Origin: an uncultured Gammaproteobacteria bacterium
GTDB taxonomy: Bacteria; Patescibacteriota; Patescibacteriia; Magasanikbacterales; GWA2-37-8
Direction: 5' to 3'
DNA: 64,000 nucleotides
Assembly: GCA_964533715.1 (NCBI GenBank)
Contig: CAZHNI010000002.1
Span: 46,496-110,495 of the forward strand
The notes under the pieces were generated by a model. The model was given only the letters and a program-made list of their open reading frames with translations, was not told the origin of the DNA and made no database searches. A program made the translations under genes and the position numbers. This document shows, one piece after another, positions 25,736 to 61,811 of the stretch. The number at the start of each line of letters is the position of its first letter. Position 1 is the stretch's first letter.

Positions 25736-26671
25736 ATGACCATAGTAGTAACTGGTGGGGCAGGGTTTATTGGTTCTCACCTGTGTGACCGTCTTGTGGC
25801 CGAAGGGCATCGTGTAATTTGTGTTGACAGTCTTTTTACTGGTAGCCGTGCCAACATTGCCGCTTTGCTGTCTAGCAAAAACTTTTCTTTTCTTGAACAT
25901 GATATTGTTCATCCTTTATTTATTGAAGAGAAAATTGATCAGATCTATAACTTGGCTTGTCCGGCCTCAACTATTCAGTATCAAGAAAACCCAGTGCACA
26001 CTATTAAGGCTAATACACTTGGCGTTATTAACATGCTGGGGTTAGCGCGTAAACATAAGGCTCGTTTTTTGCAAACATCTACTTCCGAAGTGTATGGTGA
26101 TCCAGAAATTCACCCGCAGACAGAAGAGTACCGTGGCAATGTAAACCCGGTTGGTCCGCGGGCCTGTTACGACGAGGGCAAACGTTGTTCCGAAACTCTT
26201 TGTTTTGATTATCATCGTATGCATGGTATGGAAATAAAAGTGGTGCGTATTTTTAACACTTATGGACCGAGAATGGCGTTTGACGACGGGCGTGTTATTT
26301 CTAATTTTATAATCCAAGCTCTTCGAAATGAACCAGTAACAGTATATGGCGATGGGAGCCAAACGCGCAGCTTTTGTTATGTGGATGATTTAGTAGATGG
26401 GCTCATTAAGATGATGAACAGTGATAAAACAATAACCGGGCCGATTAATCTTGGTAACCCAGGTGAACGTAGCATGCGCGAGATGGCCGAAAAAGTTATT
26501 GCACTTACAAAATCAAAAAGTGTCATTGTTAAGCGTAGTCTACCCACCGATGACCCGCGTCGACGTTGCCCAGATATAACTAAAGCACGTGAGCTGCTTA
26601 GTTGGCAGCCAAAAATCAAAATGGAAGATGGGCTTACAAAAACAATCGCCAATTTTAAATCACGACTCTAA
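25736..26671 (+). CDS. UDP-glucuronate decarboxylase / UDP-xylose synthase-like NAD-dependent sugar-nucleotide epimerase/dehydratase
   Basis: Motifs [39 protein letters not shown] and [10 protein letters not shown]. Closely resembles UXS/ArnA-type decarboxylases. Confidence 0.8.
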
Positions 26672-37537: not shown

Positions 37538-38986
37538 GTGTCCTTAAAGATAATAAAACAATTTTCTAATCGAACCGCTATTGCTGGCGCTGCTATCGCT
37601 GTAGCGTTGTTGTTTTTCAGCACCTGGAATTTGGGGAATAGCCCGGCTACATGGTTTGATGAAGGTATTAACATGGGAATAGCCAAATCATTTTTGAATT
37701 CAAGTGTTTATAGTTTACCAATCGGTCCGGACGAATACGTTTCGGAAAGATTTCAATTGATCACTACCAATTTTCCCCTACTTATTCCAGTGTCATTCTC
37801 GCTCGCAATATTCGGCAATTCAATTGCAGTTGCGCGTCTGCCTATGGTTTTGTTCTTGTTTGTTTTTGTAGTTTTGGCGTACTTCTTCGTTAAGAAGGAG
37901 GCTTCGCAGTTTGCTGCTTTGTGGAGCGCCGCCCTTATCGTTGCGTTTTCCCCATTTTATGGAAATGGTAAGGCTGTCTTGGGGGAGGTCCCAGGGCTAG
38001 TGTTTTTTTTGGCGGCCCTGCTTTTTTTGCCAATTGAATTCAAACGAAGGAGACTGTTTTCAGCGGGATTATTTTTTGGCTTGGCGGCGACGACTAAGCC
38101 TTTTTTTCTCATCATCGGTTTGTCCCTTTTGTTTGGGGAATTGATTGCAAATTTTAATAAAAATAATATTAAATTGTTGCTTACCAGACTAGTTTACTTG
38201 GGTATAGGTGCGTTTTTACCGCTCACAATTTGGATTTTTACAATCATGCCGGAAATATCTTTGTCGGGTTTACAAAACACTTTTTCGTTTTATTCAAACT
38301 CATATGCAGCGCAAAGTTTTTTTCCGTTGATATTTAAGAATGCAGTTCGATTTTTTTCCGAAACCACCCCTCTTCACATGACACTGCTTGTCGTTATTTC
38401 TTTGTATGCGTGGTATAAAAGTTGTCGCAGTGGCGAAAAATCGAGTGAACGTAAGCGAATTGTTTGGATTTTTATTATCATTAATATTTTGTGGTATTTA
38501 AAAACCCCCGGCTGGTATCGTTATTTTTTTACCGCCCACATACTGGCGTTCTTATGGTTTCCCGCTGCTTTAGAAAAGATTTTTTCAAAGCGCTTGGCAA
38601 CCGTCATGCTTAGCGTTCTCCTGGTAGTCCAGCTTGGGTATCTGCTACAAAGGAGAAATGACCCTTTATATTTTTCGGTTGAGTCGGACACCGCTTCTGC
38701 CAAGATTAATAGTTTAGCCAGACGCGACGACTCCGTATTGTTTGTAAACGCCCCCAGCTTGGCGTTTGTTAACAAGGATCACAAGGTTTATCAGTTTCTG
38801 CAAATTAATCCACAGCTTTTTTTTGGAAACAAACGACTTAATGATGAAATGGGGGAGCCCTACCGCTGGTTAGTTGTTAACGGAGATATCGGTGCGACCG
38901 CCCTTGCGAGTGAGACACAAGTTTTAAAACAGCAGTACAGCAGGGTCGCCGAAGAAGGCCATTTTGTTTTTTACAAGCACTTATGA
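37538..38986 (+). CDS. Polytopic membrane glycosyltransferase, GT39/ArnT-like (tandem paralog). The start is uncertain: GTG at 37538 or ATG at 37415, the latter overlapping the upstream gene by 115 nt.
   Basis: TM1 (AIAGAAIAVALLFFSTW) begins only after the upstream stop, and the ORF is in a different frame from 36183-37529. Confidence 0.5.
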   Translation: MSLKIIKQFSNRTAIAGAAIAVALLFFSTWNLGNSPATWFDEGINMGIAKSFLNSSVYSLPIGPDEYVSERFQLITTNFPLLIPVSFSLAIFGNSIAVARLPMVLFLFVFVVLAYFFVKKEASQFAALWSAALIVAFSPFYGNGKAVLGEVPGLVFFLAALLFLPIEFKRRRLFSAGLFFGLAATTKPFFLIIGLSLLFGELIANFNKNNIKLLLTRLVYLGIGAFLPLTIWIFTIMPEISLSGLQNTFSFYSNSYAAQSFFPLIFKNAVRFFSETTPLHMTLLVVISLYAWYKSCRSGEKSSERKRIVWIFIIINILWYLKTPGWYRYFFTAHILAFLWFPAALEKIFSKRLATVMLSVLLVVQLGYLLQRRNDPLYFSVESDTASAKINSLARRDDSVLFVNAPSLAFVNKDHKVYQFLQINPQLFFGNKRLNDEMGEPYRWLVVNGDIGATALASETQVLKQQYSRVAEEGHFVFYKHL

Positions 38987-39711
38987 ATCCAGTTTTAACC
39001 TTGATCGTGCCGGTATATAATGGAGAGGATTTTTTGGCCGCTACGCTGGCGAATTTAATAAAATGGCGTAATGGCCGGTCTGAAATAGAGATTATTATCG
39101 TTAATGATGGTAGTACTGATGCGACCGAAAGCATTATTAAAGAGGCACAAAAACAATCTGACCTACGCAGTATTTTATTAGCACACAACAAAGGTAAGGG
39201 GGCGGCGCTACGTGCCGGGCTTGCTTCTGCAAAGGGGAGCGTGGTCGCCTTTACTGACGCAGATCTGCCGTACGGGCTAGAAAGTATAGATGCGATGTGT
39301 GAAAGAATTCGCACGGCCCCCGCACTCCAGCTTTTATACGGTTCGCGTAGCCACCACAAATCAGTGGTCAGAAAAGACTACGGAATACTGAGAAAATTTG
39401 GCAGGTTATTTTTTTCACTCGCCGTTAGAATATTGGCTATACCGGGAGTTCCCGATACGCAATGCGGAATTAAGATGCTCCGCAGAGAATTGGTAAATGC
39501 CGCAGTTAAGCTCGCTCGTTTAGATAGGTTTGCTTTTGATATCGAATTGTTTACTATTGCTCGCCAAAACGGTATGATAATGGAGCCTTTTCCAGTTGAG
39601 TTGAATCATCGACGGGAGAGTAGCGTCCGGGTTGTGGTAGATACTCTAAAAATGCTTTTTGATATTCTTAGAATCCGTTTGCGATCAATTCGTGGTTTTT
39701 ATCGTCCTTAA
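38983..39711 (+). CDS. GT2 glycosyltransferase (polyprenyl-phosphate glucosyl/mannosyltransferase-like)
   Basis: Motifs LIVPVYNGE, IIIVNDGSTDAT, NKGKGAALRAG and TDADLPYG. Confidence 0.8.
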   Translation: MNPVLTLIVPVYNGEDFLAATLANLIKWRNGRSEIEIIIVNDGSTDATESIIKEAQKQSDLRSILLAHNKGKGAALRAGLASAKGSVVAFTDADLPYGLESIDAMCERIRTAPALQLLYGSRSHHKSVVRKDYGILRKFGRLFFSLAVRILAIPGVPDTQCGIKMLRRELVNAAVKLARLDRFAFDIELFTIARQNGMIMEPFPVELNHRRESSVRVVVDTLKMLFDILRIRLRSIRGFYRP

Positions 39712-39718
39712 TTTCATT

Positions 39719-41590
39719 ATGTGTGGCATTAATGGTTTTAGTTTTAAAAATGATGACTGCCTCAAACGAATGAACGAGGTAACGAAACACCGTGGGCCAG
39801 ACCAGACGGCTCTATTTAGCGATGCACACATTTCGCTTGGTTTTAATCGCTTGTCAATTATTGATTTATCAGAGCGCGGTAATCAGCCCATGTGGGACGA
39901 ACGCGAAGAACTCGTTATTGTTTTTAATGGAGAAATTTATAACTTTAAAGAACTCCGCTCCGTTCTTGAAAAAAAATATGCGTTTCGTTCGCAGAGTGAT
40001 ACCGAAGTAATTCTGTATGCCTATCGTGAGTGGGGGATAGAGTGTATTAAAAAATTAAATGGCATGTTTGCCTTGGCAATTTGGGATACTCGAACGAGTG
40101 AATTATTTTTGGCGCGTGACCCCATGGGTGTTAAACCGCTGTATTATTATTTTGATGGAGAACGATTAATTTTTTCTTCGGAAATAAAGGCCGTTTTGGA
40201 ACATAATATACCACGCAGTGTGGATGTTGACGCTTTTAATTTTTATTGCCGTATTCTTTACGTTCCGGAACCACTAACCATGTTTGAGGATATTAAAAAA
40301 TTGCCTGCCGCACACTACGCACATTTTAAAAATAACAAACTCACCATTACGCGCTATTGGCAGATTGATAATTTTACCGACTTCACATCGTATAATAATA
40401 CTCGTGAGCAAGTTCGTAATTTATTTGACGATTCAGTTCGCCGACAATTAGTCTCAGATCGCCCAGTGGGTGTATTTTTAAGCGGAGGCATTGATTCAAC
40501 GGCGGTACTTGGTGCTGTAAAAAAATATACAACTGGCCTAGTTAGCACATTTTCTGTTGGTTTCGCGACCAAAAAAGTCGATGAGAATAAGTTTAACGCC
40601 GATTTTTTATTAGCACGAAAATCAGCTCAATTTTTTAATTCCAACCACCATGAGCTCGTGATTAGCGCGCGCGACATTGGTGATAACTTAGAAAAAATTG
40701 TCTGGCATTTGGACGAACCAAATTTTAACGCTACAGCCGGAGCAGTTTATTTGCTGTCGCAGGAAGCCAAAAAAAAGGTAACAGTAGTTTTAGGAGGTGA
40801 CGGCGGTGACGAGTTGTTTGGTGGGTATCCGCGCTATTATTACAGTCGTTTGCTTAGTTATTATTGGCGTTTACCAAGGGCCGCGCGAACATTAATTGAA
40901 ACAGCTCTACAGCGAATTCAGCAGGGAGATCTTGCCACAAAAATACATATGGGCTCAAAGGAGAGTCGGATACTCCGATTTTTGTCACAAAAAAATGATA
41001 CAGTTGCAGATATTATGAATCCGTCGCAACTGCGCCCAAACGTTGTCAATGGATATTTTGCGCATAGATTTTTTAGTAATTCAGAACAACAAGACGATTT
41101 TGAAAAAAAATTCATGAATATCGATCGACAAAGTTGGCTTGTGGATGAATCGCTCACGCGAACAGACAGAATGACGATGGCGTTTGGCATTGAAGAGCGC
41201 GTGCCTATTTTAGATATTCCGCTTGCAACCTTAGCGTATCGTATTCCGACAAAGTGGAAATTTTCTGTTTGGCAGAAAGGGAGTACATTTCAAGGGAAGA
41301 AAATTTGGATAGACGCGGTAAAAGATTATTTACCAGCCCATGTTTTGCACCAAGAGAAACGCGGTTGGTTTACCCCAATGGCCAAATGGATTAGAGAAGA
41401 TTTGCTCGACCAGGTAGCCGATATTATTAGCCCGCATAATATTCAAAAAGAATTTTTCAATCCCCAAGCGGTACAACGGATTTGGCGCGATCACCTCAGT
41501 GGTAAAAAATACAACTTGAACATTATTTGGGCAATTGTGATGTGGCAACTGTGGTATAATGCTTTTATTAAAAAATATGAATCTCGTTAA
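39719..41590 (+). CDS. asnB: Asparagine synthetase (glutamine-hydrolysing) family amidotransferase, copy 1
   Basis: Starts MCGINGF (class-II GATase with N-terminal Cys). PP-loop SGGIDS. The real start is the ATG at 39719. Confidence 0.85.
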   Translation: MCGINGFSFKNDDCLKRMNEVTKHRGPDQTALFSDAHISLGFNRLSIIDLSERGNQPMWDEREELVIVFNGEIYNFKELRSVLEKKYAFRSQSDTEVILYAYREWGIECIKKLNGMFALAIWDTRTSELFLARDPMGVKPLYYYFDGERLIFSSEIKAVLEHNIPRSVDVDAFNFYCRILYVPEPLTMFEDIKKLPAAHYAHFKNNKLTITRYWQIDNFTDFTSYNNTREQVRNLFDDSVRRQLVSDRPVGVFLSGGIDSTAVLGAVKKYTTGLVSTFSVGFATKKVDENKFNADFLLARKSAQFFNSNHHELVISARDIGDNLEKIVWHLDEPNFNATAGAVYLLSQEAKKKVTVVLGGDGGDELFGGYPRYYYSRLLSYYWRLPRAARTLIETALQRIQQGDLATKIHMGSKESRILRFLSQKNDTVADIMNPSQLRPNVVNGYFAHRFFSNSEQQDDFEKKFMNIDRQSWLVDESLTRTDRMTMAFGIEERVPILDIPLATLAYRIPTKWKFSVWQKGSTFQGKKIWIDAVKDYLPAHVLHQEKRGWFTPMAKWIREDLLDQVADIISPHNIQKEFFNPQAVQRIWRDHLSGKKYNLNIIWAIVMWQLWYNAFIKKYESR

Positions 41591-42239
41591 ATATTTAAAA
41601 GAAATGTGGCGCGGTAAAGACATTTACCGTATTCTTATGAACGCGGAATGTTCGGAACATTCATTATCTGGTGTCACCTTAGATGTAGGAAGTGGAGAAA
41701 ACATGGCCAGTTATCACCGATTTTTAAAAAGAAAACCGGATGTAGAAGTTATGTCTTTAGATTTGCATTTTGTTTCGGATGGAAATGAGAAACAGTTTAT
41801 TGATTTAGAGAAAGACGCATTGCCAAAAAATGATTCTAGCGTTGACACCGTACTTTTATTCAATTTTTTGGAACATATATATAACTATTCTCATGTCTTT
41901 AATGAAATTAAGCGGGTTTTAAAACCGAACGGCACATTAATTGGAGCAGTGCCATTTTTAGTGGCGTACCATCCCGACCCGCACGATTACTGGCGGTATA
42001 CAAAAGAGACGTTGGAAAAGATTTTTACTTCTGCTGGATTTATGCATGCGAGCATTAAGTCGTTTGGTTGTGGTCCGGCCACAGCCGCTTTCTCGCAGTT
42101 TGAAGTCGTGTGCCCGCGGATTTTAAAAATGTTTTTATTCCCAATTGTTTTTTTATTAGATTCAATTATAGTTCGTTTGCGCCCACAATTTGGTAAAGAG
42201 AAGTTTTCGCTTGGCTTATTTTTTGAGGTTTCTCCGTAA
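41577..42239 (+). CDS. Class I SAM-dependent methyltransferase
   Basis: Motifs LDVGSGEN, DTVLLFNFLEHIYN and LKPNGTLIGAVPF. Overlaps the asnB end; the listed start at 41559 is also possible. Confidence 0.65.
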   Translation: MNLVKYLKEMWRGKDIYRILMNAECSEHSLSGVTLDVGSGENMASYHRFLKRKPDVEVMSLDLHFVSDGNEKQFIDLEKDALPKNDSSVDTVLLFNFLEHIYNYSHVFNEIKRVLKPNGTLIGAVPFLVAYHPDPHDYWRYTKETLEKIFTSAGFMHASIKSFGCGPATAAFSQFEVVCPRILKMFLFPIVFLLDSIIVRLRPQFGKEKFSLGLFFEVSP

Positions 42240-42242: not shown

Positions 42243-43370
42243 ATGCAGAAAATATATTACATTGCCAATATTCGTCTGCCGACCGAAAAAGCGCATGGTT
42301 TGCAAATAATGAAGACATGCGAAGCCATGGCTAGGCAAGGAGTTGAGGTTGAATTGATTGTTCCAAAACGTTTTAATCATATTACGGAGGATCCATTTGT
42401 GTTTTATGGTGTGAAAAAAAATTTTACAATTACCAAATTATGGTGTTTGGATTTAATTTCTCTAAATTTTTTTGGCTCAGTAGGGTTCTGGGTTGAAAGT
42501 TGGACATTTTATCGGAGTGTGCGAAAATATCTCAAGCAACAACAATCTGGTGTTTATTATACGCGCGATTTACCAATTGCAAATTGGCTTTCAAAAAGTT
42601 TTGGTCCATTGTTTTATGAAATTCACACCTTGCCCGATGTTATTTCGTCGCGCTACAGGTCGGCATGGCAGCGGGCCAAAGGCTTAGTGGTAATTAGTAA
42701 TGGGCTAAAAAGTGCCTTGCTTAAACAGGGGATAGTAGAAAGTAAAATACTTGTGGCGCGTGATGCAGTAGATATTGAACAGTTTTCCATTGCTCTTTCA
42801 CAAATTGAATGCCGACGAAAACTTGAATTACCTCAAGACAAAAAAATTGTTCTTTATTCCGGACACTTGTATTCGTGGAAAGGGGTATATAATGTTTTGG
42901 CGGTAGCTAAGTTATTGCCAGAGGTTTTATTTATTTTTGTTGGTGGAACGACTGAAGATTTATTATCATTCCGGCAGAGAGCTAAGACTGAAGGAACTAC
43001 CAATGTTCTTATTTTTGGTTACAAAAAGCATGAAGAGATTCCCCCTTTTCTTAAAGCGGCAGATGTGTTATTATTGCCGAATAGTGCAATGGAAAAAATT
43101 TCAGAGTATTACACCTCTCCTTTAAAACTATTTGAGTATATGGCTTCAGGAGTACCGATCGTGGCCTCTGACATCCCTTCAATTCGAGAAGTTTTATCGG
43201 AGAAGAACGCCTTTTTTTTCCCGACTGACAATTTAAATAAGTTTGTTGATACAATTAATTTTGTCTTGAATAACCCGGCTTTTTCTGGCAAGATTGCCGC
43301 ACAGGCCCATGAAGATTCCAAGCGGTTTAGTTGGGCTAACCGAACTAAGGCTATTATTAATTTTTTATAA
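42243..43370 (+). CDS. Glycosyltransferase, GT4 family
   Basis: C-terminal domain with SEYYTSPLKLFEYMASGVPIVASDIPSIREVL. Confidence 0.75.
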   Translation: MQKIYYIANIRLPTEKAHGLQIMKTCEAMARQGVEVELIVPKRFNHITEDPFVFYGVKKNFTITKLWCLDLISLNFFGSVGFWVESWTFYRSVRKYLKQQQSGVYYTRDLPIANWLSKSFGPLFYEIHTLPDVISSRYRSAWQRAKGLVVISNGLKSALLKQGIVESKILVARDAVDIEQFSIALSQIECRRKLELPQDKKIVLYSGHLYSWKGVYNVLAVAKLLPEVLFIFVGGTTEDLLSFRQRAKTEGTTNVLIFGYKKHEEIPPFLKAADVLLLPNSAMEKISEYYTSPLKLFEYMASGVPIVASDIPSIREVLSEKNAFFFPTDNLNKFVDTINFVLNNPAFSGKIAAQAHEDSKRFSWANRTKAIINFL

Positions 43371-43406: not shown

Positions 43407-43808
43407 ATGGAATATTATAATAAATTAGGGTTTATTAAACAGTTCGCACGCTTTGTGTTGTCTGGCGGGTTAGCTGGTTTTTTAGGGATATTCACAATTT
43501 ATATTTTGGTTGATCTGCTTCATTTATGGTATTTGGTTTCAAGTATAGCAGCATTTTTTGTTACTTTTGTGGCTGCATTTTTTTTACAAAAGTTTTGGAC
43601 CTTTAAAAATTATGCTTTGTTTTTGTTGCCTAAGCAGGCGACTTTCAGTTTTGGGATTGCGGTGTTGAATTTTTTCCTTAACACTTTTTTGATGTATGGT
43701 TTGGTCGATAGGTTAAGCTTAAACTATCTTTTTTCACAATTTCTTACATATATTTTTTTTGGTGTAGTTGATTTTTATATTTATAAGTTTGTTATTTTCA
43801 AAAGTTAA
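43407..43808 (+). CDS. GtrA-family membrane protein
   Basis: 133 aa, 4 TM helices, FARFVLSGGLAGFLGIFTIYILVDLL and a KFWTFKN motif. Confidence 0.7.
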   Translation: MEYYNKLGFIKQFARFVLSGGLAGFLGIFTIYILVDLLHLWYLVSSIAAFFVTFVAAFFLQKFWTFKNYALFLLPKQATFSFGIAVLNFFLNTFLMYGLVDRLSLNYLFSQFLTYIFFGVVDFYIYKFVIFKS

Positions 43809-43820: not shown

Positions 43821-45989
43821 ATGCATGATTTGTCCATTATTTCTGGCTGTTTAAATGAAAGTCGAAATGTCGTGGAACTTGTTGAAAGACTACAGGCGGT
43901 TTTTGTTAAAGATAAAATTAATGGAGAAATTATTTTGGTGGATGACGGGTCCACCGATGATACGGGGCAGCTAATTGAGGAAATGTCCAAAAAATTTTCT
44001 AATGTAAAAAAAATCACTCATTCTCATAATCGAGGCATAGAGCAATCCTGGAAATCTGGCCTTCGCGCTGCCTCCGGTGTGTACGTCTGTCTTATTGATT
44101 CAGATTTACAAAATTTGCCAGAAGACTCAGGGAGATTGTATAGAGAAATTCAGTTTTCGCACGTTGATGTTGTTCAAGGTTGGCGCAACCACATTGGAAG
44201 GCTGCAAGATAGTTTTTTGCGACACTGGTTTAGCCGCGGCCTTAATGCGTTGTTAAATATGGTTTTTGGGATGTCTCTCAAGGACAATAAATCCGGGTTT
44301 ATTTTGTGTCGTAAATCAGTATTGGAAGATATTTTAAATCACCACTTGAACTATCATTATTACCAGACGTTTGTTACTGTGGCAGCTAAATATAAAGGGT
44401 ATACCATTAAAGAGGTAGAAACTCTTTTTCAAAGCAGAGTTTTGGGCAAGTCTTATTTAACAAATTCTTTTAAAGCTAGTTTTTTGACTTTTGTCGATAT
44501 ATTAAAAGGATTTTTTGAATTTCATTTTATTTCTAAGTACGATAATTTTTTAAGGGATTTTTTGCGAGAGAATCCTGTTGTTTCAAAAGATAAAGAAAGC
44601 TCTTGGTTCAGACGTTTGTATTTTAAATTATATATTTTTTTGTTTCCGCTCCATCATTGGTTTATTTCCAAGAATTCTTATGAGTACTTACAGGATTTAA
44701 ATAATAGTCAATGGCTAACTCCCCAAAAAATTAGGGAATATCAAGAAAATCGATTAAAAAAATTAATTAACCACGCGTATTACCACGTGCCTTTTTATCG
44801 CGATCTGTTTAATGCTCAAGGAATTAAACCAGAACATATTCAGACATTGGAAGATTTGCAAAAATTGCCAATAATTAATAAAAAAATTGTAAAGGAAAAT
44901 ATCTATTTTGGGTTACTGTCGGATAACCACAATAAGAAAAACCTCCAAAAGGTACAGACCAGCGGCTCGACCGGGGAACCTTTTTATACGTTCGCCGAAA
45001 GGAAACAGCTCGAAATGAGGTGGGCAGCCACTCAGCGTGCGTTTGATTGGACCGGGTATCGTTTTGGTGATCGTCAGGTCCGGTTATGGCACAAATATCT
45101 TGGTATGAAGCCGCTAGAGATCGTCCGTGAGTTGCTGGACGCGCTGCTCACTAGGCGTAAATTCATCCCCGCCTACGAAATTAAGGAAGACAACTTGGGG
45201 GAGTATGTTGACTCCATCATGAAATATAAGCCGGTACTGCTTGATGGTTATGCAGAATCATTTAATTTTTTAGCGCACTATCTTAAACATCATACTTATG
45301 ATGGCTATAAACCAAAAGCCATTATGTCGTCGGCCCAGTCGATGCCGCCGGAGAGTCGTAGAATAATTGAGGAAGTTTTTGGGTGTGGAGTCTATGATAA
45401 ATACGGTTCACGAGAATTTGGCGGGGGAGTGGCGTATCAATGCAAGGAACGTAATGGGTACCATGTTGTAGCGGAGTGTGGTATCGTGGAAATAATTAAG
45501 GATGGCCGACCGGCACAGCCGGGTGAAATAGGCGAAATTGTTATAACCGAGCTGAATAATTTTGCCTTGCCATTGATCCGCTACAACATAGGCGATCTCG
45601 CTGTAAAAATAGACCCCAATCAAACGTGTAAATGCGGGCGCGGTTTGCCACTAATTGGTGAGATTCAGGGGCGTGTTCAATCCATTGTTGTTGGTACCAA
45701 CAAGCAATTTATTCCGGGAACTTTTTTTAATCGCGTTTTTTTTAAACATGATTTGGCAGTGCGCCAATACCAAGTCGTTCAGGAAGAACTGGGCAAATTA
45801 AATATAAAAATAATTAAAGGTAATTTATTTACCGACCAAATCCTTGAAACCATCTCCAAAGATATTAAAATACACATGGGAGAAAACATGGTTATCCAAT
45901 TTGAATTTGTCGACGAAATACCGCTTGGTAGAACCGGTAAAAGACAATATTGTGTGTCCAAAATTAATCCGCTTGAATATCTAAAATAA
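43821..45989 (+). CDS. Bifunctional protein: N-terminal GT2 (polyprenyl-phosphate sugar transferase-like) fused to a C-terminal adenylate-forming ligase (PaaK/CapK/F390-synthetase family)
   Basis: GT2 motifs ILVDDGSTDDT, NRGIEQSW and LIDSDLQN. Ligase motifs TSGSTGEPF (ANL P-loop) and YDKYGSREFGG. Confidence 0.7.
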   Translation: MHDLSIISGCLNESRNVVELVERLQAVFVKDKINGEIILVDDGSTDDTGQLIEEMSKKFSNVKKITHSHNRGIEQSWKSGLRAASGVYVCLIDSDLQNLPEDSGRLYREIQFSHVDVVQGWRNHIGRLQDSFLRHWFSRGLNALLNMVFGMSLKDNKSGFILCRKSVLEDILNHHLNYHYYQTFVTVAAKYKGYTIKEVETLFQSRVLGKSYLTNSFKASFLTFVDILKGFFEFHFISKYDNFLRDFLRENPVVSKDKESSWFRRLYFKLYIFLFPLHHWFISKNSYEYLQDLNNSQWLTPQKIREYQENRLKKLINHAYYHVPFYRDLFNAQGIKPEHIQTLEDLQKLPIINKKIVKENIYFGLLSDNHNKKNLQKVQTSGSTGEPFYTFAERKQLEMRWAATQRAFDWTGYRFGDRQVRLWHKYLGMKPLEIVRELLDALLTRRKFIPAYEIKEDNLGEYVDSIMKYKPVLLDGYAESFNFLAHYLKHHTYDGYKPKAIMSSAQSMPPESRRIIEEVFGCGVYDKYGSREFGGGVAYQCKERNGYHVVAECGIVEIIKDGRPAQPGEIGEIVITELNNFALPLIRYNIGDLAVKIDPNQTCKCGRGLPLIGEIQGRVQSIVVGTNKQFIPGTFFNRVFFKHDLAVRQYQVVQEELGKLNIKIIKGNLFTDQILETISKDIKIHMGENMVIQFEFVDEIPLGRTGKRQYCVSKINPLEYLK

Positions 45990-45994: not shown

Positions 45995-46786
45995 ATGAAT
46001 CTGATAGAAAAAAACACCGGTGACCTATACTCTGATTGTTGGCAGGTATTAAGAAAGGAGCAGTGGTTGGCGCAGGGGGAGCTTTTGTCCGATCAGCTGG
46101 GGCTTACCTCGGATCAGGTGCAGGGCAAAATTTGCCTGGATGGAGGTTGTGGCCACGGCGCCCTTAGTTATAGGCTGCATTTGTTGGGAGCCAAAGAAGT
46201 AGTCGGTGTTGATTTAAAGCCTACTCCTCCCAAGGAAGTTTTTCAGGATATTACATCAGTTAAATTTGTCGAGGCGTCTCTAATCAAAGTTCCATTTAAC
46301 GATCAGTCTTTTGATTTGGTGGTTTCCAGCGGAGTTATTCATCACACAATCGATCCGGAGAAATGTTTCTCCGAACTTGCTCGTGTGTTAAAACCAGGAG
46401 GAATACTTACTTTGGGTGTATATGGTAAACACGGTTTATTTTCTTATTGTCTTTGGGTGGCCAGATTATTTACTATCAAATTGCCAATTCTACGTAAAAA
46501 TATTGTTTCTAAAATAGTCGATCTTTTTAGGCTGGATCCTATTTGGAGGTACCAAGTTTTAGATTATCTTTATGTTCCCATACTACATCGTTATAGCCCA
46601 GAACAGGTTAAAGAAATGTTTATAAGAAACGGATTGATGGATCCTCGGCGCGTATCCAATATTAGTAGCGACAAGGCCAAGAAATATATTTCCCAAAATA
46701 CATCATATTCTTATGATCATCGTCGCTGGACTTCAAAACTACTTTTTGGTTATGGTTTCATTGTAATTAAGGGACGTAAAAAATAA
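45995..46786 (+). CDS. Class I SAM-dependent methyltransferase
   Basis: Motifs LDGGCGHGALS, VVSSGVIHHTIDP and LKPGGILTLGVY. Confidence 0.75.
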   Translation: MNLIEKNTGDLYSDCWQVLRKEQWLAQGELLSDQLGLTSDQVQGKICLDGGCGHGALSYRLHLLGAKEVVGVDLKPTPPKEVFQDITSVKFVEASLIKVPFNDQSFDLVVSSGVIHHTIDPEKCFSELARVLKPGGILTLGVYGKHGLFSYCLWVARLFTIKLPILRKNIVSKIVDLFRLDPIWRYQVLDYLYVPILHRYSPEQVKEMFIRNGLMDPRRVSNISSDKAKKYISQNTSYSYDHRRWTSKLLFGYGFIVIKGRKK

Positions 46787-46790: not shown

Positions 46791-48566
46791 ATGTGTGGGG
46801 TTGTGGGTTTTTTTGATAAAAAAAACCAACTTACCGAAGTCGAAAGGCAGAGGTTAATTGGACAAATGATAGAGCAAATTGATCATCGCGGCCGTGATGA
46901 TCGTGGTTCGTACTCAGAAAATGGCGTAGTATTGGGCCACACCCGTCTTAGTATTTTAGACCTAAGTAAGAACGGCGCGCAGCCATTTTTTAGCTATGAT
47001 AATTCGGTTGTGTTGTCATATAATGGAGAAGTTTACAATTATCAAACGCTCAATGAGGAATTATCAAAAAGACACCCTCTAAAATCAAACTGCGACACGG
47101 AGACCATTGCTGTTAGTTATGTTGATAAAGGGGTATCATGTGTCCAGACCTTTAATGGCATGTTTGCTTTTTCTTTATACGATAAAAAAAAGCAAAATAT
47201 TGTTTTAGCAGTAGACCGTTTTTCCATTAAGCCTTTGTATTTCATTGATACGCCAAATTGGTTCGCTTGGAGTTCTGAGGCCAAGAGCCTGCTGTTGCTT
47301 CCAGGGTTTAAGGCTGAGTTTAATGAAAAAAAGCTGTCGGAATATTTAATGTTTAGACAAATTGCTGGCAAAGAAACCCTTTTTAAAAATATATATCGTG
47401 TTCTACCAGCGCAAATCATTAATTTTGAAACATCATCAAACGAGTTCACTAGTAATATTTATTGGGATTTGGCCAAAAATGATTTTGGTGATATTGATTA
47501 CGAAACGTTTTTGCTTAAAAAATTGGAGAGTAGTGTTTCCAGTCATCTCATGTCGGATGTGCCGGTTGGAGTTCAATTAAGCGGCGGATTAGATTCTAGT
47601 TTAGTTGCGGCCATTGCCAAGAGGCAGATTAAAAATTTGAATACCTTTTCTATTGGTTTAAAGACAGAGGGTTGGAATGAGTTCGAATATTCGCAAAAAG
47701 TTGCCGGTGAAATCAATACTACACATCACCAAATAACTTTTTCGGAAGATGATTTTTGTCGGGAGTTGCCAAACCTTACTTATTTTCACGACGAACCAAT
47801 AAGCCACTCTCATTCTGTGCCCATGTATTTATTAGCCAAAGAAGCCGCGAAATATGTAAAGGTTCTGCTCAGTGGTGAGGGTGCGGATGAGGTTTTTTTC
47901 GGCTACAGGCGATACTTGAATTTTTTTGGTAAAAATATTCAAGCTAATGATTTAGTCTTTTCTAATGCATGGGTAGGAGCGGCTTTTGCCCAAAAAGTTA
48001 GCAGACTAGAATTTAACCAGCTTGAGGCCTTGGAGCAAAGATTCGCTCTCGCTAAGAAGGTAGATAACCTTTCTACAGTGGATAAATTGAGCTTTTATGA
48101 TATAAAAACTTATCTGCCATCTTTGTTGTTGCGACAAGACAAAATGGGTATGGCGGTAACTTTAGAAAATCGGGTGCCGTTTTTGGATTATACTTTGGTT
48201 GAGTTCGGTTTTTCATTGCCGGAGAATTTAAAAATTGACAGGAGTGGAAATAAAATTTTGTTAAAAAAAGTGGCTGAAAGTTTTATATCGCAGAATATTA
48301 TATATCGCAAGAAGTGTGGTTTTGCTCAACCGCTGTCCGAGTGGTTTAAAAACAAAAATGGTTTAGGGGCTTTTCTTAGCTTGCTTTTGGAAAGTAAAAG
48401 AGATTTCTTGAACTATGAAGAAATAAACAAAATAGTTGTTGAACATCAGGCAGATAAATCTGATCATTCAGAAATCCTGTGGGTTTTAGTTAATTTGGAA
48501 ATATGGTTTCGGATTTTTATTGACGGCATCAAACCAAGCGAAATTCTAAATAGTGTTTATAGGTAG
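46791..48566 (+). CDS. asnB: Asparagine synthetase family amidotransferase, copy 2
   Basis: Starts MCGVVGFF. PP-loop SGGLDSS. Confidence 0.85.
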   Translation: MCGVVGFFDKKNQLTEVERQRLIGQMIEQIDHRGRDDRGSYSENGVVLGHTRLSILDLSKNGAQPFFSYDNSVVLSYNGEVYNYQTLNEELSKRHPLKSNCDTETIAVSYVDKGVSCVQTFNGMFAFSLYDKKKQNIVLAVDRFSIKPLYFIDTPNWFAWSSEAKSLLLLPGFKAEFNEKKLSEYLMFRQIAGKETLFKNIYRVLPAQIINFETSSNEFTSNIYWDLAKNDFGDIDYETFLLKKLESSVSSHLMSDVPVGVQLSGGLDSSLVAAIAKRQIKNLNTFSIGLKTEGWNEFEYSQKVAGEINTTHHQITFSEDDFCRELPNLTYFHDEPISHSHSVPMYLLAKEAAKYVKVLLSGEGADEVFFGYRRYLNFFGKNIQANDLVFSNAWVGAAFAQKVSRLEFNQLEALEQRFALAKKVDNLSTVDKLSFYDIKTYLPSLLLRQDKMGMAVTLENRVPFLDYTLVEFGFSLPENLKIDRSGNKILLKKVAESFISQNIIYRKKCGFAQPLSEWFKNKNGLGAFLSLLLESKRDFLNYEEINKIVVEHQADKSDHSEILWVLVNLEIWFRIFIDGIKPSEILNSVYR

Positions 48567-48577: not shown

Positions 48578-49156
48578 ATGAGTGTTGCAGAAATTAAATT
48601 AAATTTAGGTTGTGGCGAGACCAAGAAGGCCGGCTATGTTAATGTCGATTGGAATTTTCGCGACAACCCGGATGTAGTTCATGATTTGAATGTTTTCCCG
48701 TATCCTTTTGCTGACAGCACGTTTGATTTAGTTGAAGCCGATCATGTTTTGGAGCATTTAGATAAACCTTTTCTCGTAATGAAGGAACTGCATCGCATAT
48801 TAAAGCCATCGGGGCGCGTGGTTATTCGGGTCCCGCATTTTAGTCGCGGTTTTACACACGCTGAACATGCTCACGGTTTCGATGTCACATTCCCCTTATA
48901 TTTTAACAAAAAGACGACCGTGGCCAATTACTATGGTAGTGACTTTGAACTAGTTAATTTGGAATTAAAATGGGAGGCATTTCTTCATTTGTTGCCATTT
49001 ATGGGCTATGGGAAAATTACTATAATGTTTATTAAATTGCTGAATCACATAATTTCTTTTTTGGCCAATTTAAGTCCGGCTTTTTGTAGCCGGGTGTGGT
49101 GTTTTTGGGTGGGGGGATTCAATGAAATAAAATTTGAAATGAAGTGTATTAAATAG
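48578..49156 (+). CDS. Class I SAM-dependent methyltransferase (type 11)
   Basis: Motifs LNLGCGETKK, EADHVLEHLDKP and LKPSGRVVIRVP. Confidence 0.7.
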   Translation: MSVAEIKLNLGCGETKKAGYVNVDWNFRDNPDVVHDLNVFPYPFADSTFDLVEADHVLEHLDKPFLVMKELHRILKPSGRVVIRVPHFSRGFTHAEHAHGFDVTFPLYFNKKTTVANYYGSDFELVNLELKWEAFLHLLPFMGYGKITIMFIKLLNHIISFLANLSPAFCSRVWCFWVGGFNEIKFEMKCIK

Positions 49157-49163: not shown

Positions 49164-50057
49164 ATGAAATCAATTTCTGAATTTTTAAAAATTCTTCGTT
49201 GTACTTGCGGCGCTGATTTAAATAGTATCCAAAAAAATATTGCTTGTTCAAAATGTGGACAAATATATGGATCGGCGGACAATGCTTATTTTAATTACAC
49301 AAAAGAACACAAAAATAAAGAAAACGTTGAATCAAATCCGGATGGTCTTGTGGCGCGACTTAAATATTTTTTTAAAAAATTTCCGAAATTTTACTATTTT
49401 CTGGCCTATTTATTTGGCGGTCGTCAGGTAAATACTACGGCAGAAAAATTTTGTAAGACACTCCGTTCCGACGCCGTTGTAGTTAATGTTGGATCTGGCA
49501 CAAAAAGATTGGGGGAAAATGTGATAAACGTTGATTTTTTTCCATTTTCTGTAGTTGATGTGGTGACCCTAGCAGAGCAGCTACCATTCAAAGATGGTTC
49601 GGTGGATGCAGTGGTGTGCGATAACCTGCTTGAACACGTCAAAAAACCGCTGGCCGTAATTAGAGAAATACACCGTGTTTTGAAAACGGGTGGTATTGTT
49701 TATGTTGGTATACCTTTTATGCTTGGTTATCATTCGTCACCAAATGATTTTCAGCGTTGGACTGCTGAGGGGCTTCGTGAACTAATGTTCGGGTTTAGCG
49801 AGAGAGAACTAAAAATCGCTTATGGTCCAACTTCAGCTATGGTAACCGTTTTGAGTGAGTGGTTGGCCTTGGTTTTTTCTTTTAACATCTCCTTTCTTTA
49901 CAATAGTTTACTTATTATCCTTACCATCATCTTGTCGCCACTTAAGTTGCTTGATTGTGTTGTTTCGCATTATAAAACAGCCGAAAATATTGCTTATGGA
50001 TTTTATTATATTGGTACCAAAAAGTCAGTCAACAGTAGCCTATGTCTATCTTTATAA
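49164..50057 (+). CDS. SAM methyltransferase with N-terminal Cys4 zinc-ribbon (Trm112-like) and a C-terminal hydrophobic segment
   Basis: CTCG...CSKCG zinc ribbon. Methyltransferase motifs VNVGSGTKR, DAVVCDNLLEHVKKP and LKTGGIVYVGIPF. C-terminal TM-like stretch. Confidence 0.7.
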   Translation: MKSISEFLKILRCTCGADLNSIQKNIACSKCGQIYGSADNAYFNYTKEHKNKENVESNPDGLVARLKYFFKKFPKFYYFLAYLFGGRQVNTTAEKFCKTLRSDAVVVNVGSGTKRLGENVINVDFFPFSVVDVVTLAEQLPFKDGSVDAVVCDNLLEHVKKPLAVIREIHRVLKTGGIVYVGIPFMLGYHSSPNDFQRWTAEGLRELMFGFSERELKIAYGPTSAMVTVLSEWLALVFSFNISFLYNSLLIILTIILSPLKLLDCVVSHYKTAENIAYGFYYIGTKKSVNSSLCLSL

Positions 50058-51790
50058 GAAAAAATTTTATATTTATTATGGGCGCTCTTTTGGTTGGCGT
50101 CGTTTCTATTCTACCCCAAATTATTCCAGTTTTGCATTTGGGCAATGAGTATAAAGGCATCCCTTTTATATACACCGCTAACGAAGACACCTACCTTGCC
50201 AGAATTAGAGAAGTCATTGACGGGCACCCGTTAGTTGGGTCGGCTTTTTTTTATGAATATAAAAATTGGCGCCCAATTGTTCCGGCAATCGGAGAAAACT
50301 TATATGCAATTCCAACCTTATTGTTTTCTGCGCCCCTGCTTGGCGTAGTTACGGCTAGTAAATTTCTGCTCCCAGCCGGTCTATTTATCCTGGCGTCTCT
50401 TTTAATTCTGCGTTTAAGCACCGACCCACAATCAAAGTGGTCCAAAGTTAATGCGTTTGTGGGTGCTCTTCTCATTACTTTGGGCTATGATATCTTTGAT
50501 TACCAACATTTTTTTAAGCTGGTTACTAATCCGGTAGATGCTTTTAGCCTCTCTGTGTGGACTAGGCCGATTAACCCGATATTGGGGGCAATTTTTTTAC
50601 TAATTTTTTTGTTGCTCATCTTAAAAATAATAGAACAAAGGAAAATAATTTATATTATTCCGGCCGCCGTAGTGTGGGCGCTGTCAGTGGGGTATATATT
50701 CAGCTGGACGCTTATTCTGGCAATTGTTGGTCTCTTTATTTTGCTATTCATAATAAAGAAAGATTTCGTCCTTGTTCGTCAGCTAATCTTACTTGTTTTG
50801 CTTTGGTTCGTGTTAACTTTTCCGTATTGGTACAGTTTGTTGGGTGCTTTAGGTAATTCGGTTGGGGGGGTGGCTGCTGCTTCTCGAAATGGAATTTTTT
50901 TAACTCATCGCCCCATTATCAATAAAATTGTTTTGGCATTTACCTTTATTTTTTTGGGATTTTCCGGTTATTTTCGATGGTATCAGAAAGGAAAAAATTC
51001 GCCGGAAACTTGGTGGTATGTTTTAGAGGTATTCGTAGCCGCCTCCTGGGCGGTTTTCAATCAGCAAATTATCACCGGTCGAACCGTTTGGTATCATCAT
51101 TACGTGCAATACACGATTCCGCTTGGTATTGTTGTGGTTATGGTTATCTTTAATAATTGGGTTAGACCGATTTTATTTAAGGTTTGGGCTGGGTTTATTG
51201 TCAGTATCATTCTGTTTGTCAGTTTTTATAATTTTATAGATTTGCGCGCGATAAATTATCGTTATTTAGATTTTCAAAATTTGCAAAGTTACGCCCCGCT
51301 TTTTTTGTGGATTAATAAAAACGCCGCAAGAGAATGTGTAATATTAAATCAAGACACCCCTGTTAGATTTGAATTGTTGGTCTCGGCGTTTACCGGCTGT
51401 AATAGTTATGCCCCTTCATGGGTTTTTGATGGTGTCCCTGCGGAGAGAATCAGACATGATTATTTAGTTATGCTTAGGCTTAGGGGTATTAACCCAGAAT
51501 CAGTTAAACAATATCTAATCGATCACGAAACTGAAGTTCGCTCATACTTTTTTAAAGACTGGGATCAGATGTTTGGCCGAGGACCAGACCCGTACATAAC
51601 AGAAGTTATTGACCGTTTGTCGAGCGATTATGCAAGTTTTGTTAAGGGTAATTTTGTCGATGAATTAAAAAAGTATAAGTTGGATTATATACTTTTTGTC
51701 GGGCCACCATCTCCTGATCTGACGAAATCCCTGCCAGGAATTATGCCGGCGTTTCAATATGATAATTTTTATCTCTATAGATTTAATTGA
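50042..51790 (+). CDS. Polytopic integral membrane protein of unknown function (possible GT-C-fold glycosyltransferase)
   Basis: 582 aa, more than 12 predicted TM helices, and a soluble C-terminal region. Confidence 0.5.
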   Translation: MSIFIRKNFIFIMGALLVGVVSILPQIIPVLHLGNEYKGIPFIYTANEDTYLARIREVIDGHPLVGSAFFYEYKNWRPIVPAIGENLYAIPTLLFSAPLLGVVTASKFLLPAGLFILASLLILRLSTDPQSKWSKVNAFVGALLITLGYDIFDYQHFFKLVTNPVDAFSLSVWTRPINPILGAIFLLIFLLLILKIIEQRKIIYIIPAAVVWALSVGYIFSWTLILAIVGLFILLFIIKKDFVLVRQLILLVLLWFVLTFPYWYSLLGALGNSVGGVAAASRNGIFLTHRPIINKIVLAFTFIFLGFSGYFRWYQKGKNSPETWWYVLEVFVAASWAVFNQQIITGRTVWYHHYVQYTIPLGIVVVMVIFNNWVRPILFKVWAGFIVSIILFVSFYNFIDLRAINYRYLDFQNLQSYAPLFLWINKNAARECVILNQDTPVRFELLVSAFTGCNSYAPSWVFDGVPAERIRHDYLVMLRLRGINPESVKQYLIDHETEVRSYFFKDWDQMFGRGPDPYITEVIDRLSSDYASFVKGNFVDELKKYKLDYILFVGPPSPDLTKSLPGIMPAFQYDNFYLYRFN

Positions 51791-51796: not shown

Positions 51797-52456
51797 ATGA
51801 ACATATTTATAAAAGAATTTTTAAAATATAAAGAAAAAATATTTCCCGACAGAAAGTTCCGTCGCGCCAGAATTTGGTCCAACCAAGAACTAAAAAAAAT
51901 CGCCAATCTTTTTGAGGGAGACATAATAAATGTGAGTGGGTGGAAAGACAGTGACAAACGGGATGGTTTTTATCGGGACTATTTTCCCAAAGCCAAGTCT
52001 TATTGGCTTTCTAACTTTTCCGGTCCATCTGGTTTCCAGGGCAATAATCCAAATGAAATTTTTCTTGATTTGGAAAAAGACTTAGACAATGATTTTGTGG
52101 GGAAATTTGACGTGGTATTTAACCACACCACTCTTGAGCATGTATACAATTTTCAAAAAGCTTTTCAGAATTTATGTCATTTAAGCAAGGACGTAGTCAT
52201 TATTGTTCTGCCTTTTTTGCAACAATTACATGCGGTTAAGGGTGATTATGAAGACTATTGGAGATTTAGCCCGTATGCTATAGAAAAAATGATGAAAGAA
52301 AACGGATTGGCGTTATTGTATATGTCAGCCAATAACAAAAAGTCCGAGAGTGTTTACGTGTTTGCTGTTGGGACAAAAAACCCGCTCCGGTGGGCGGGAA
52401 AAATACAAAACGGTAATCAGGATTTTTTTAATAATTTAGGCGATAAAGCCTTTTAA
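51797..52456 (+). CDS. Putative SAM-dependent methyltransferase-like protein
   Basis: Motifs FDVVFNHTTLEHVYNFQKAF and VVIIVLPF, resembling type-11 methyltransferase motifs. Confidence 0.5.
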   Translation: MNIFIKEFLKYKEKIFPDRKFRRARIWSNQELKKIANLFEGDIINVSGWKDSDKRDGFYRDYFPKAKSYWLSNFSGPSGFQGNNPNEIFLDLEKDLDNDFVGKFDVVFNHTTLEHVYNFQKAFQNLCHLSKDVVIIVLPFLQQLHAVKGDYEDYWRFSPYAIEKMMKENGLALLYMSANNKKSESVYVFAVGTKNPLRWAGKIQNGNQDFFNNLGDKAF

Positions 52457-54898: not shown

Positions 54899-54959
54899 AG
54901 TACTTTTGAGTATATCACAATTTTAAAAAATTAGCTGTAGATGCCCTAATCAGTCTTTA

Positions 54960-54998
54960 AATCAAAACCGTCCAGATGATTTCTGGACGGTTTTGATT
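54960..54998. terminator. Perfect 15-16-bp hairpin (ATCAAAACCGTCCAG-atgattt-CTGGACGGTTTTGAT) between two minus-strand genes, at the edge of the high-GC islet
   Basis: Inverted repeat read directly. Likely the terminator of the high-GC gene ending at 55058. Confidence 0.5.
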
Positions 54999-55057
54999 AG
55001 TGCTCGAGGGGGGTGGAAACCTCAGGGGGATGTCGAGCGGCATCGTGAGGGGGGGCT

Positions 55058-55894: not shown

Positions 55895-56044
55895 GTGCTT
55901 GCCCTCCTTGTGGGCGTTTTGGGTCAAAATTTTGCTTAGCAAAAATTAAAGCACCCCTCATTTTATCATATAATAAGGTTTTTGTCAATTCGCGATCATC
56001 GATTCGTTTAAAATTTTTAACCCGCTAGTTTTTCTTGATAAATT

Positions 56045-56053: not shown

Positions 56054-56098
56054 ATGGTACTCTTAACTCAGATTAGATTGAAAGAAATTACCTTAAAT

Positions 56099-56821: not shown

Positions 56822-56831
56822 TTAAAATCAT

Positions 56832-58148: not shown

Positions 58149-58155
58149 TTGAGGT

Positions 58156-58956: not shown

Positions 58957-58958
58957 TT

Positions 58959-61737: not shown

Positions 61738-61811
61738 TCATTTTGGTTGGAGGGGAAAGATCGGCGTAAATTTATCGAAACAATATATCAACTTCATTTA
61801 TAGAATATACT

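Follow-up and report, generated by a model that had tools for sequence, protein, structure and literature searches.

In a 64,000-nucleotide stretch of Patescibacteria DNA (contig CAZHNI010000002.1; the whole stretch is called the window below), the open reading frame (ORF) at 43821..45989 (+) encodes a single protein of 722 amino acids (aa), in which a family 2 glycosyltransferase (GT2) is covalently joined to an adenylate-forming ligase related to PaaK and CapK. We propose, tentatively and with somewhat less than even confidence, that this protein is a bifunctional enzyme of the membrane surface: judged from its sequence, the GT2 half would make a polyprenyl-phosphate-linked (uronic) sugar, and the ligase half would amidate or esterify the C6 carboxylate of that sugar before it is flipped. 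Both halves come from well-known superfamilies and their combination is widespread, with no study of it found; the fusion is of a known kind, in which a glycosyltransferase is joined to an enzyme that modifies sugars, here as part of a lipid-carrier system of three components.

According to the ORF list of the window, the reading frame runs unbroken from its ATG to the stop codon at 45987-45989, as the original prediction of a single 722-aa ORF had it. The GT2 domain (aa 1-235, 43821..44525), delimited by Pfam PF00535, by alignment to the Pyrococcus furiosus dolichyl-phosphate mannose synthase (PfDPMS, 5mlz) and ArnC and by Foldseek, is followed by an inter-domain linker (aa 236-262, 44526..44606), by the large N-terminal subdomain of the ligase (aa 263-615, 44607..45665), which contains a “PLHHW” helix and a helical microdomain, and by the C-terminal ligase subdomain (aa 616-722, 45666..45986), which begins at the hinge G617-R618 and carries the A10 motif; all of these lie on the + strand. 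In an alignment of 62 homologues, to which the conservation figures below also refer, the linker has a mean identity of 27.7%, compared with 54.5% for the GT2 domain and 61.5% for the large ligase subdomain, and it varies by an indel of 3 columns only. An AlphaFold2 model of the whole chain reached a mean predicted local distance difference test (pLDDT) score of 88.9 and a predicted template modelling score of 0.87. No transmembrane (TM) helix is predicted in the fusion, in which no 19-residue stretch has a Kyte-Doolittle hydropathy of 1.6 or more, and the helices 216-235 and 262-278 are hydrophobic or amphipathic.

Could two genes have been joined by an error of sequencing or assembly? One lineage does have separate GT2 and CapK genes, the boundary of which corresponds to the linker. 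Against this stand the unbroken ORF, at least 119 independent full-length homologues that are collinear through the linker and include complete genomes and a closed plasmid, and the confident model of the whole chain, so that we give the explanation practically no weight. Because the collinear homologues number in the hundreds and originate from many samples, assemblers and phyla, a sequencing artefact is excluded and the fusion is a real, continuous protein. Judged by the continuous frame, the limited linker indel and the model, the junction, for which the original prediction had asked for a check, is sound.

For the GT2 half, Pfam Glycos_transf_2 (PF00535) matches aa 5-171 with 93.6 bits against a cut-off of 23.3 (E = 1.6e-26), and the best matches among NCBIfam models, PDB sequences and Foldseek structures are ArnC, PgfS, P. 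furiosus DPMS and GtrB. With the N-terminal part, Foldseek returned ArnC (9bhe, 1.9e-15) and also DPMS and GtrB. The N-terminal 260 aa align with PfDPMS and ArnC through the motifs DxDLQ..PE, GxR, KDxxSGF and RxxGxS; these motifs, the GT-A fold and the amphipathic interface helices (at 216-235 in the fusion) are shared with DPMS (5mlz), ArnC (9bhe, 9hwj) and GtrB (5ekp, 9nyd). The metal/nucleotide-sugar motif D93-S-D95-L-Q97 (44097..44111, +) corresponds to DADLQ of 5mlz and ArnC and is invariant in the 62 homologues, in which D42, D93, D95, Q97, R122, D155, K157, R206 and S211 are all retained. A hydropathy scan showed that the C-terminal TM helices, two in ArnC and GtrB and four in PfDPMS, are missing from the GT2 half; where ArnC and GtrB carry two TM helices, the fusion has a ligase of 460 aa. 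Some eukaryotic DPM1 proteins likewise have no TM helix. We therefore assign residues 1-235, on these sequence and fold comparisons, to the GT2 enzymes of the polyprenyl-phosphate sugar synthase class (DPMS/ArnC/GtrB-like). A narrower name was rejected: the NCBIfam matches to ArnC and PgfS on aa 3-213 fall far under the curated cut-offs, and among ArnC, PgfS, PpgS and AglJ the best score is that of ArnC, at 70.8 versus 529 bits. The DPM1-like domain with its DxD motif had thus been predicted correctly from the start, whereas the “QxxRW-like region” described with it was a mistake, since a motif scan of the fusion found no QxxRW, only the stretch “QGWR” at 119-122, which aligns with the “GSR” strand of DPMS. 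QxxRW is a trait of processive GT2s and not of DPM1-like enzymes, and a processive GT2 was ruled out by the missing motif.

The C-terminal 444 aa match the PaaK-type ligase BT_0428 of B. thetaiotaomicron among PDB sequences (4r1l, E = 2.7e-35), and Foldseek with the C-terminal part returned 4r1m (1.3e-29, probability 1.0) followed by PaaK1/2, HCL, NatL2, AjiA1 and ClxA. NCBIfam models on aa 279-619 comprise a DVU_1553-family AMP-dependent ligase (1.4e-46), PaaK and F390 synthetase, all under their curated cut-offs, and the Pfam model AMP-binding (PF00501) gives a weak match at aa 460-577 (24.5 bits against a gathering threshold of 29.9). CapK_C (PF27533) is listed in the precomputed annotation of the exact window protein and of its homologues. 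Against the concern that the C-terminal domain might not match ANL ligases stand its significant sequence and fold matches to PaaK-family structures, and Pfam, NCBIfam, PDB sequences and Foldseek agree on both domain assignments.

The core motifs of the ligase, all on the + strand, are invariant or nearly so. The P-loop (A3), T380-S-G-S-T-G-E-P387 (44958..44981), occurs clade-wide, and a regular-expression check showed that it reads exactly as predicted, TSGSTGEP(F) at aa 380-388. The A5 motif is Y528-G-S-R-E532 (45402..45416), in which Arg replaces the usual Thr/Ser; A7 is D592, in the Gly-Asp pair 591-592; the A8 hinge is G617-R618; and alignment and a motif check place A10 at T705-G-K707, with K707 at 45939-45941. 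The residues T380 to P387, Y528, G529, R531, E532, D592, G617, R618, T705, G706 and K707 are invariant in the 62 homologues. “YGSRE” is common to fused and standalone CapK-like proteins and therefore marks the CapK clade. By these motifs residues 263-722 classify as an adenylate-forming ANL ligase of the PaaK/CapK clade with intact core motifs, and the active sites of both halves look functional.

With members of the PaaK family (PaaK1/2, BT_0428, 2-hydroxyisobutyryl-CoA ligase, NatL2, AjiA1, ClxA), the properties of which have been described (PMC8388817), the ligase half shares the fold, the N-terminal helical microdomain, the P-loop, the hinge and the A10 lysine. On the other hand, it is only about 25% identical to them, stays under every curated NCBIfam cut-off, has Arg instead of Thr/Ser in A5, possesses the additional N-terminal “PLHHW” helix, and is encoded in glycan loci rather than with aromatic catabolism. 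An identity as PaaK sensu stricto was rejected (TIGR02155, 107.9 versus 646 bits; NF041878, 117 versus 700 bits), and because these equivalog thresholds are failed, the JGI name “phenylacetate-CoA ligase” is an over-annotation. Coenzyme F390 synthetases share a COG with the PaaK/CapK ligases, and the matches to TIGR03335 (1.5e-24) and to the F390-related TIGR02304 (1.2e-12) would fit an enzyme that, instead of activating a carboxylate, attaches AMP or GMP to the sugar or lipid at a hydroxyl or phosphate. We consider such a function very unlikely, as the score is far under the cut-off (86 versus 459 bits), carboxylate-activating PaaK-type ligases match better, and we know of no precedent for an F390-type transfer in glycan pathways.

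The same architecture is common. A search of 5.8 billion proteins gave, among its 120 best matches, at least 119 full-length homologues and one fragment; the full-length proteins, counted as clusters at 90% identity in this one search, have 705-780 aa, are 51-80% identical to the query over 96-100% of its length and are annotated with GT2 and CapK_C. An exhaustive search of representative proteins added about 27 full-length clusters down to 35% identity, beneath which standalone CapK-like proteins of about 450 aa appear. The fusion is conserved in at least seven phyla; its carriers belong to the Patescibacteria, Myxococcota, Acidobacteriota, Actinomycetota, Bdellovibrionota and Alphaproteobacteria, and full-length copies occur also in Polyangiaceae, Sorangium sp. 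So ce375, Binatia, Acidimicrobiia, Protaetiibacter intestinalis and on a closed plasmid of Roseobacter litoralis. Throughout, the protein is annotated merely as “glycosyltransferase” or, wrongly, as “phenylacetate-CoA ligase”. Our literature searches found no publication on the fusion or on the biochemistry of CapK, and nothing useful on PF27533 or on F390-synthetase-like genes in O-antigen or uronamide contexts; the original remark that the arrangement is not recognisable from characterised pathways thus holds for this fusion, with a functional analogue, Cj1438, discussed below.

Support for a coupling of the two activities comes from a lineage in which they are encoded separately. In the split loci L039 and L040 the gene order is short-chain dehydrogenase/reductase (SDR), GT2 (244-250 aa), CapK, SDR, with a UDP-sugar dehydrogenase divergently upstream and GT87 glycosyltransferases of the GT-C type nearby. 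The separate GT2 and CapK genes overlap by 8-14 nt in the same order as in the fusion, and the split falls inside the linker region. The separate GT2 is 40-43% identical to the fused domain, compared with 26% for the other mostly alignable GT2 of the window, and standalone CapKs of 470-477 aa (P0142 and more than 40 clusters) are 58-64% identical to actinobacterial fusions, and thus nearer to these than the latter are to the window protein. By these identities the split-gene lineage is nested among relatives of the fusion, and we interpret it as a gene fission. Because this lineage keeps GT2 and CapK adjacent, overlapping and in the same order, the split pair argues, as Rosetta-stone evidence, that the two activities belong together. 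The coupled step suggested by the original prediction gains genomic support from this ordered pair, from the conserved neighbourhood of sugar-nucleotide enzymes, flippase-like proteins and GT-C transferases, and from the invariant residues in both halves; the example given there, acylation or amidation of a lipid-linked sugar, may be the reaction concerned.

Other members of the ligase clade show different arrangements. CapK-like ligases are also fused to family 4 glycosyltransferases (GT4), methyltransferases, GNAT proteins and aspartate 1-decarboxylase (representatives P0216, P0264, P0235, P0223, P0153 and others), and tandem CapK-CapK proteins of 900-980 aa occur among the representative proteins. 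By their domain content these fusions are consistent with the decoration of glycans with small acids or amines. Aspartate decarboxylase (PanD) is a source of beta-alanine, and its fusion offers a lead to the small-molecule substrate of a CapK-type ligase. Standalone CapK-like ligases, as had been predicted, are found in polysaccharide loci, including GT4-rich loci of the Wzx/Wzy type, and one plasmid homologue (H6) is annotated as “capsule biosynthesis protein CapK”. These standalone proteins of capsule and exopolysaccharide loci (CapK_C, COG1541) belong to the same clade and have the same motifs as the fused ligase; unlike it they are free-standing, mostly 25-40% identical and usually encoded beside GT4 genes. 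To our knowledge no standalone CapK has been characterised biochemically, and our literature searches also found none.

In the window the fusion lies within an operon on the + strand that extends from 25736 to 52456, and the genes right around it are separated by 4-36 nt or overlap. The sub-operon is headed by a GT4 glycosyltransferase (42243..43370, conserved in L035, L036 and L037), followed by a GtrA/DPMS_TM-family protein with four predicted TM helices (43407..43808; PF04138, 5.8e-14), which ends 12 nt upstream of the fusion and from its family is a candidate membrane partner or flippase. Five nt downstream of the fusion begins a class I S-adenosylmethionine (SAM)-dependent methyltransferase, MT_c (45995..46786; Methyltransf_11, 7e-23), the best NCBIfam match of which is the DVU_1556-family methyltransferase, under its cut-off. 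It is followed by an AsnB-like, carboxylate-amidating glutamine amidotransferase (46791..48566; TIGR01536, 440 bits), two SAM methyltransferases (48578-49156 and 49164-50057), a 582-aa polytopic membrane protein (50042..51790) and a 219-aa protein (51797..52456), which is encoded by the last gene of the operon, shows a weak match to Methyltransf_31 (E = 0.0014) and has a 218-aa counterpart in L035. All of these genes are on the + strand.

The 582-aa protein has no Pfam or NCBIfam match. Its AlphaFold2 model, built from an alignment of 52 sequences, has a pLDDT of 92.5, and the top 22 Foldseek matches in the PDB are all GT-C enzymes: PglB (9e-8), STT3, DPY19, AglB, AftA, ArnT, AftD and Pmt4. 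A profile comparison (hhalign) with the PMT_2 proteins of the window gave a probability of 83%. All 139 of its detected relatives for which an organism is named are Patescibacteria proteins annotated as “hypothetical”. The GT-C fold is thus assigned with confidence, apparently to an undescribed family, and the protein is a candidate transferase that uses a lipid-linked sugar. With the GtrA protein, the GT2 domain and the GT-C-fold protein, the sub-operon therefore encodes all three types of component of lipid-carrier glycosylation, a set (of the Gtr/Arn type) that also occurs together in L035-L038; in being accompanied by a GtrA-type protein and a GT-C transferase the fusion resembles the Gtr/Arn-type GT2s. 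Two more DPM1-like GT2s and three PMT_2 GT-C proteins are encoded in the window, so that the pairing of the 582-aa protein with the GT2 of the fusion is inferred from adjacency only. These proteins belong to the large operon, which further contains several GT4s, a CDP-tyvelose-2-epimerase-like SDR, two AsnB-like amidotransferases in total and at least five further methyltransferases, and which is headed by a UDP-glucuronate decarboxylase (UXS, 25736..26671, +; human UXS1 4gll, 2e-115). The UXS gene implies a pool of UDP-glucuronate (UDP-GlcA) in the source organism.

The large operon also holds a second triplet (38983-42239, +), in which a DPM1-like GT2 (38983-39711), an AsnB-like protein (39659-41590) and a SAM methyltransferase (41559-42239) directly follow two PMT_2 GT-C genes. 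It parallels the succession of fusion, methyltransferase and AsnB and suggests a recurring module of lipid-linked sugar, amidation and methylation in the source organism. The SDR (35162-36190, +) is directly upstream of two PMT_2 GT-C genes and resembles CDP-tyvelose 2-epimerase (9rl0, 1.2e-91; 1orr, 4.9e-88), which hints at a CDP-linked or C2-epimerised sugar in the glycan of this bacterium.

Around the homologues, two types of neighbourhood were seen. In Patescibacteria-type loci (L001 and L035-L038, 56-67% identity), the block of fusion, methyltransferase, AsnB, one or more methyltransferases and the new GT-C protein recurs, often together with GtrA and GT4. The AsnB-like gene stays beside the fusion in all five of these loci. 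An MT_c-type methyltransferase directly downstream of the fusion and the two later methyltransferases are conserved in L035-L038, and the 582-aa protein in L003 and L035-L038. GtrA adjoins the fusion again in L035 and is nearby in L037, L038 and L042; as a trait of the whole family the adjacency was rejected, since it is confined to Patescibacteria-type loci and, at a distance, R. litoralis (L042). Elsewhere (L002-L004, L006, L008, L012, L023 and others), a GalE-like SDR is constantly encoded directly upstream of the fusion, in many cases together with a second SDR downstream, and PMT_2 GT-C, DedA or MprF-TM proteins are nearby. The second SDR matches best 5u4q (3.8e-143), deposited as a dTDP-glucose 4,6-dehydratase, and next the 6zl6 group and MoeE5, which we take to be UDP-GlcA 4-epimerases. 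Over 31 non-redundant loci the upstream SDR was counted in 17, mostly adjoining the fusion, the MT_c-type methyltransferase, the second most conserved neighbour of the family, in 12, the downstream SDR in 7 and AsnB in 6; these counts are lower bounds, as blastp and phmmer searches with seeds derived from the window are insensitive in high-GC genomes. A UDP-sugar 6-dehydrogenase lies within 10 kb of the fusion or the split pair in L039, L040, P. intestinalis (L041) and R. litoralis.

On these grounds a sequence of three steps may be envisaged. Like DPMS, ArnC and GtrB, the N-terminal GT2 would use a nucleotide sugar to glycosylate polyprenyl phosphate. The CapK-type ligase would then, with ATP, adenylate the C6 carboxylate of this lipid-linked uronic acid, and the acyl-adenylate would be resolved directly by an amine or a hydroxyl, giving an amide or an ester with no CoA intermediate, which would place the decoration of the sugar at the cytoplasmic face. 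The AsnB-like amidotransferase and the methyltransferases might modify the product further, GtrA might flip it, and the 582-aa GT-C-fold protein might move the decorated sugar to an acceptor at the cell surface. The context of a lipid-carrier pathway is supported by the proximity of GtrA, by the GT-C-fold protein in the operon and by the GT-C, MprF-TM and DedA proteins beside homologues. The C6 carboxylate of a uronic acid is favoured because dehydrogenases and epimerases are neighbours in other phyla, because the UXS of the operon implies a UDP-GlcA pool, because carboxylate-amidating AsnB homologues accompany the fusion, and because the genes adjoining it in L035-L038 showed neither an acyltransferase nor a carrier protein. 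This last point and the existence of PaaK-family ligases that do not use CoA, NatL2 and AjiA1 (PMC8388817), are the reasons why we prefer a direct transfer over a route through CoA.

Several observations weigh against this proposal. A scan of the window found no Ugd, no DegT and no GalE-like partner SDR, and the only UDP-GlcA enzyme present, UXS, removes the carboxylate. The amidation of the uronate could instead be the work of the AsnB-like enzyme, and the ligase would then be redundant in this function. The CapK-GNAT fusions hint that some members of the clade may make CoA thioesters. In Sorangium sp. So ce375 (L021; NZ_CP150335.1, 8980-18413) the fusion stands between a methyltransferase on one side and a DUF362 protein, a PEP-utilising (PPDK_N) enzyme and an MFS transporter on the other, a context which apparently recurs in similar form in other Polyangiaceae, is unlike a classical glycan locus and may indicate a different product, e.g. 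a small glycolipid or metabolite. Finally, DegT aminotransferases are found near the homologues in L001, L037 and L041, and these would fit the N-acylation of an amino sugar equally well.

Such an acylation would reverse the polarity of the reaction: the acid activated by the ligase would be a free one (amino acid, beta-alanine or organic acid), and its acceptor would be an amino or hydroxyl group on the lipid-linked sugar that the GT2 has made. This N- or O-acylation would be conceptually akin to the transient N-formyl group of the Arn pathway or to D-alanylation. The DegT-type aminotransferases, the fact that the best GT2 matches include ArnC, which handles an N-acylated amino sugar, the fusions of CapK-like domains to aspartate decarboxylase and GNAT, and the presence in the window of UXS rather than a uronate epimerase all speak for it. 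However, DegT is missing from most loci as well as from the window, conservation among the partners is highest for epimerase-type SDRs and, where they are annotated, for UDP-sugar dehydrogenases, and no conserved gene for the synthesis of a special acid was seen; we regard the reversed polarity as rather unlikely.

Is there a precedent for a GT2 joined to an enzyme that modifies a sugar carboxylate? In Cj1438 of Campylobacter jejuni, a GT2 (aa 1-325) is fused to an ATP-dependent amidoligase for the C6 position of D-glucuronate (aa 453-776); the C6 carboxylate of GlcA is amidated once the sugar has been transferred, UDP-GlcA is not accepted, and the product formed by Cj1438C from ATP is ADP (PMC11800397). 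As ADP is formed, Cj1438 is analogous and not homologous to the fusion. The two proteins have in common a GT2 covalently joined to an ATP-dependent enzyme, and the decoration of a sugar carboxylate, which Cj1438 performs, is the one that we propose for the fusion. We take Cj1438C to be an enzyme of the ATP-grasp type rather than an AMP-forming ANL ligase. In contrast to our proposal, the substrate of Cj1438 is a capsule chain under elongation, in a pathway with an ABC transporter, and not a polyprenyl-phosphate monosaccharide. Among characterised proteins it is the nearest functional analogue of the fusion.

Cj1438 also bears on the possibility that the two domains serve the same pathway but do not act consecutively on one lipid-linked molecule, the fusion providing only co-localisation and stoichiometry. 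The ligase might then modify the nucleotide sugar before transfer, a finished polymer or another acceptor, or make an acyl-CoA for a separate acyltransferase. This would suit the varied partners of CapK-like domains (GT4, methyltransferase, GNAT, PanD, a second CapK), the standalone CapKs in GT4-rich loci of the Wzx/Wzy type, and the NCBIfam and PDB relatives, which are mostly CoA ligases. Yet a cytoplasmic, ATP-requiring ligase that is tethered to a GT2 at the membrane surface has the product of this GT2 as the closest substrate at hand; the conserved neighbours in L035-L038 showed no acyltransferase, and Cj1438, the analogous system, does not accept the nucleotide sugar. We judge non-consecutive action to be unlikely.

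Consecutive action on a lipid-linked monosaccharide has relatives at the cytoplasmic face. ArnD deformylates undecaprenyl phosphate (Und-P)-Ara4FN, and NaxD of Francisella deacetylates Und-P-GalNAc. The proposed reaction would similarly edit a polyprenyl-phosphate monosaccharide after the GT2 has acted and before it is flipped or transferred by a GT-C enzyme; ArnD and NaxD are separate proteins that remove a group by hydrolysis, whereas the fused ligase would add one at the expense of ATP.

The remainder of the window holds further features. Against a background of 38-42% GC, three gene-sized islands with sharp borders reach 65-75% GC, at about 250-1200, 19900-22150 and 54950-55950. They encode, respectively, an OMP decarboxylase (270-1121, +); a TPR/proline-rich membrane protein (19961-20746, +) and a 418-aa protein (20750-22006, +) with proline-rich 46-nt repeats; and a 294-aa, weakly TPR-like ORF (55058-55942, -). 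Hairpins are present at island edges (19783-19905 and 54960-54998), and the islands reflect either the recent acquisition of gene-sized pieces from high-GC bacteria or a chimeric assembly. Two large Wzy_C proteins (O-antigen ligase/polymerase-like) with C-terminal TPR repeats (16620-18890 and 22384-24441, +) flank one such island, an unusual pair in an organism presumed to be without lipopolysaccharide. A cluster further downstream, at 56054-63481 (+), encodes two CTP_transf_3 cytidylyltransferases, a class III aminotransferase, a CN-hydrolase, a polysaccharide deacetylase, an ABC exporter and a GFO/IDH/MocA oxidoreductase, and looks like a pathway for a CMP-activated (nonulosonic or similar) sugar. 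Rfam gave no match in the window.

What would the fusion mean for the biology of its carriers? The architecture itself would not startle a glycobiologist; the family is large, phylogenetically broad and uncharacterised. If the ligase decorates a lipid-linked sugar, it would represent a new type of editing at the carrier stage, beside the hydrolytic ArnD and NaxD, and a concrete candidate for attaching non-carbohydrate substituents to uronic acids in surface glycans. More doubtfully, there may be an undescribed class of glycoconjugate step, in which an ANL ligase, fused to or in an operon with a lipid-sugar synthase, uses ATP to form an amide or ester on a monosaccharide bound to polyprenyl phosphate, at the cytoplasmic face; this class would be common to Patescibacteria, Actinomycetota, Myxococcota, Acidobacteriota and Alphaproteobacteria. 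In that case the long-missing enzymes for the attachment of amino acids or amines to the uronic acids of many surface glycans would be proteins of the CapK type. The question can be tested in cultured carriers, namely Roseobacter litoralis (B14, plasmid pROLI127), Protaetiibacter intestinalis and Sorangium sp. So ce375. Almost nothing is known of the envelopes of Patescibacteria, and for these bacteria the locus sketches a whole decoration module, with a new GT-C family in it.

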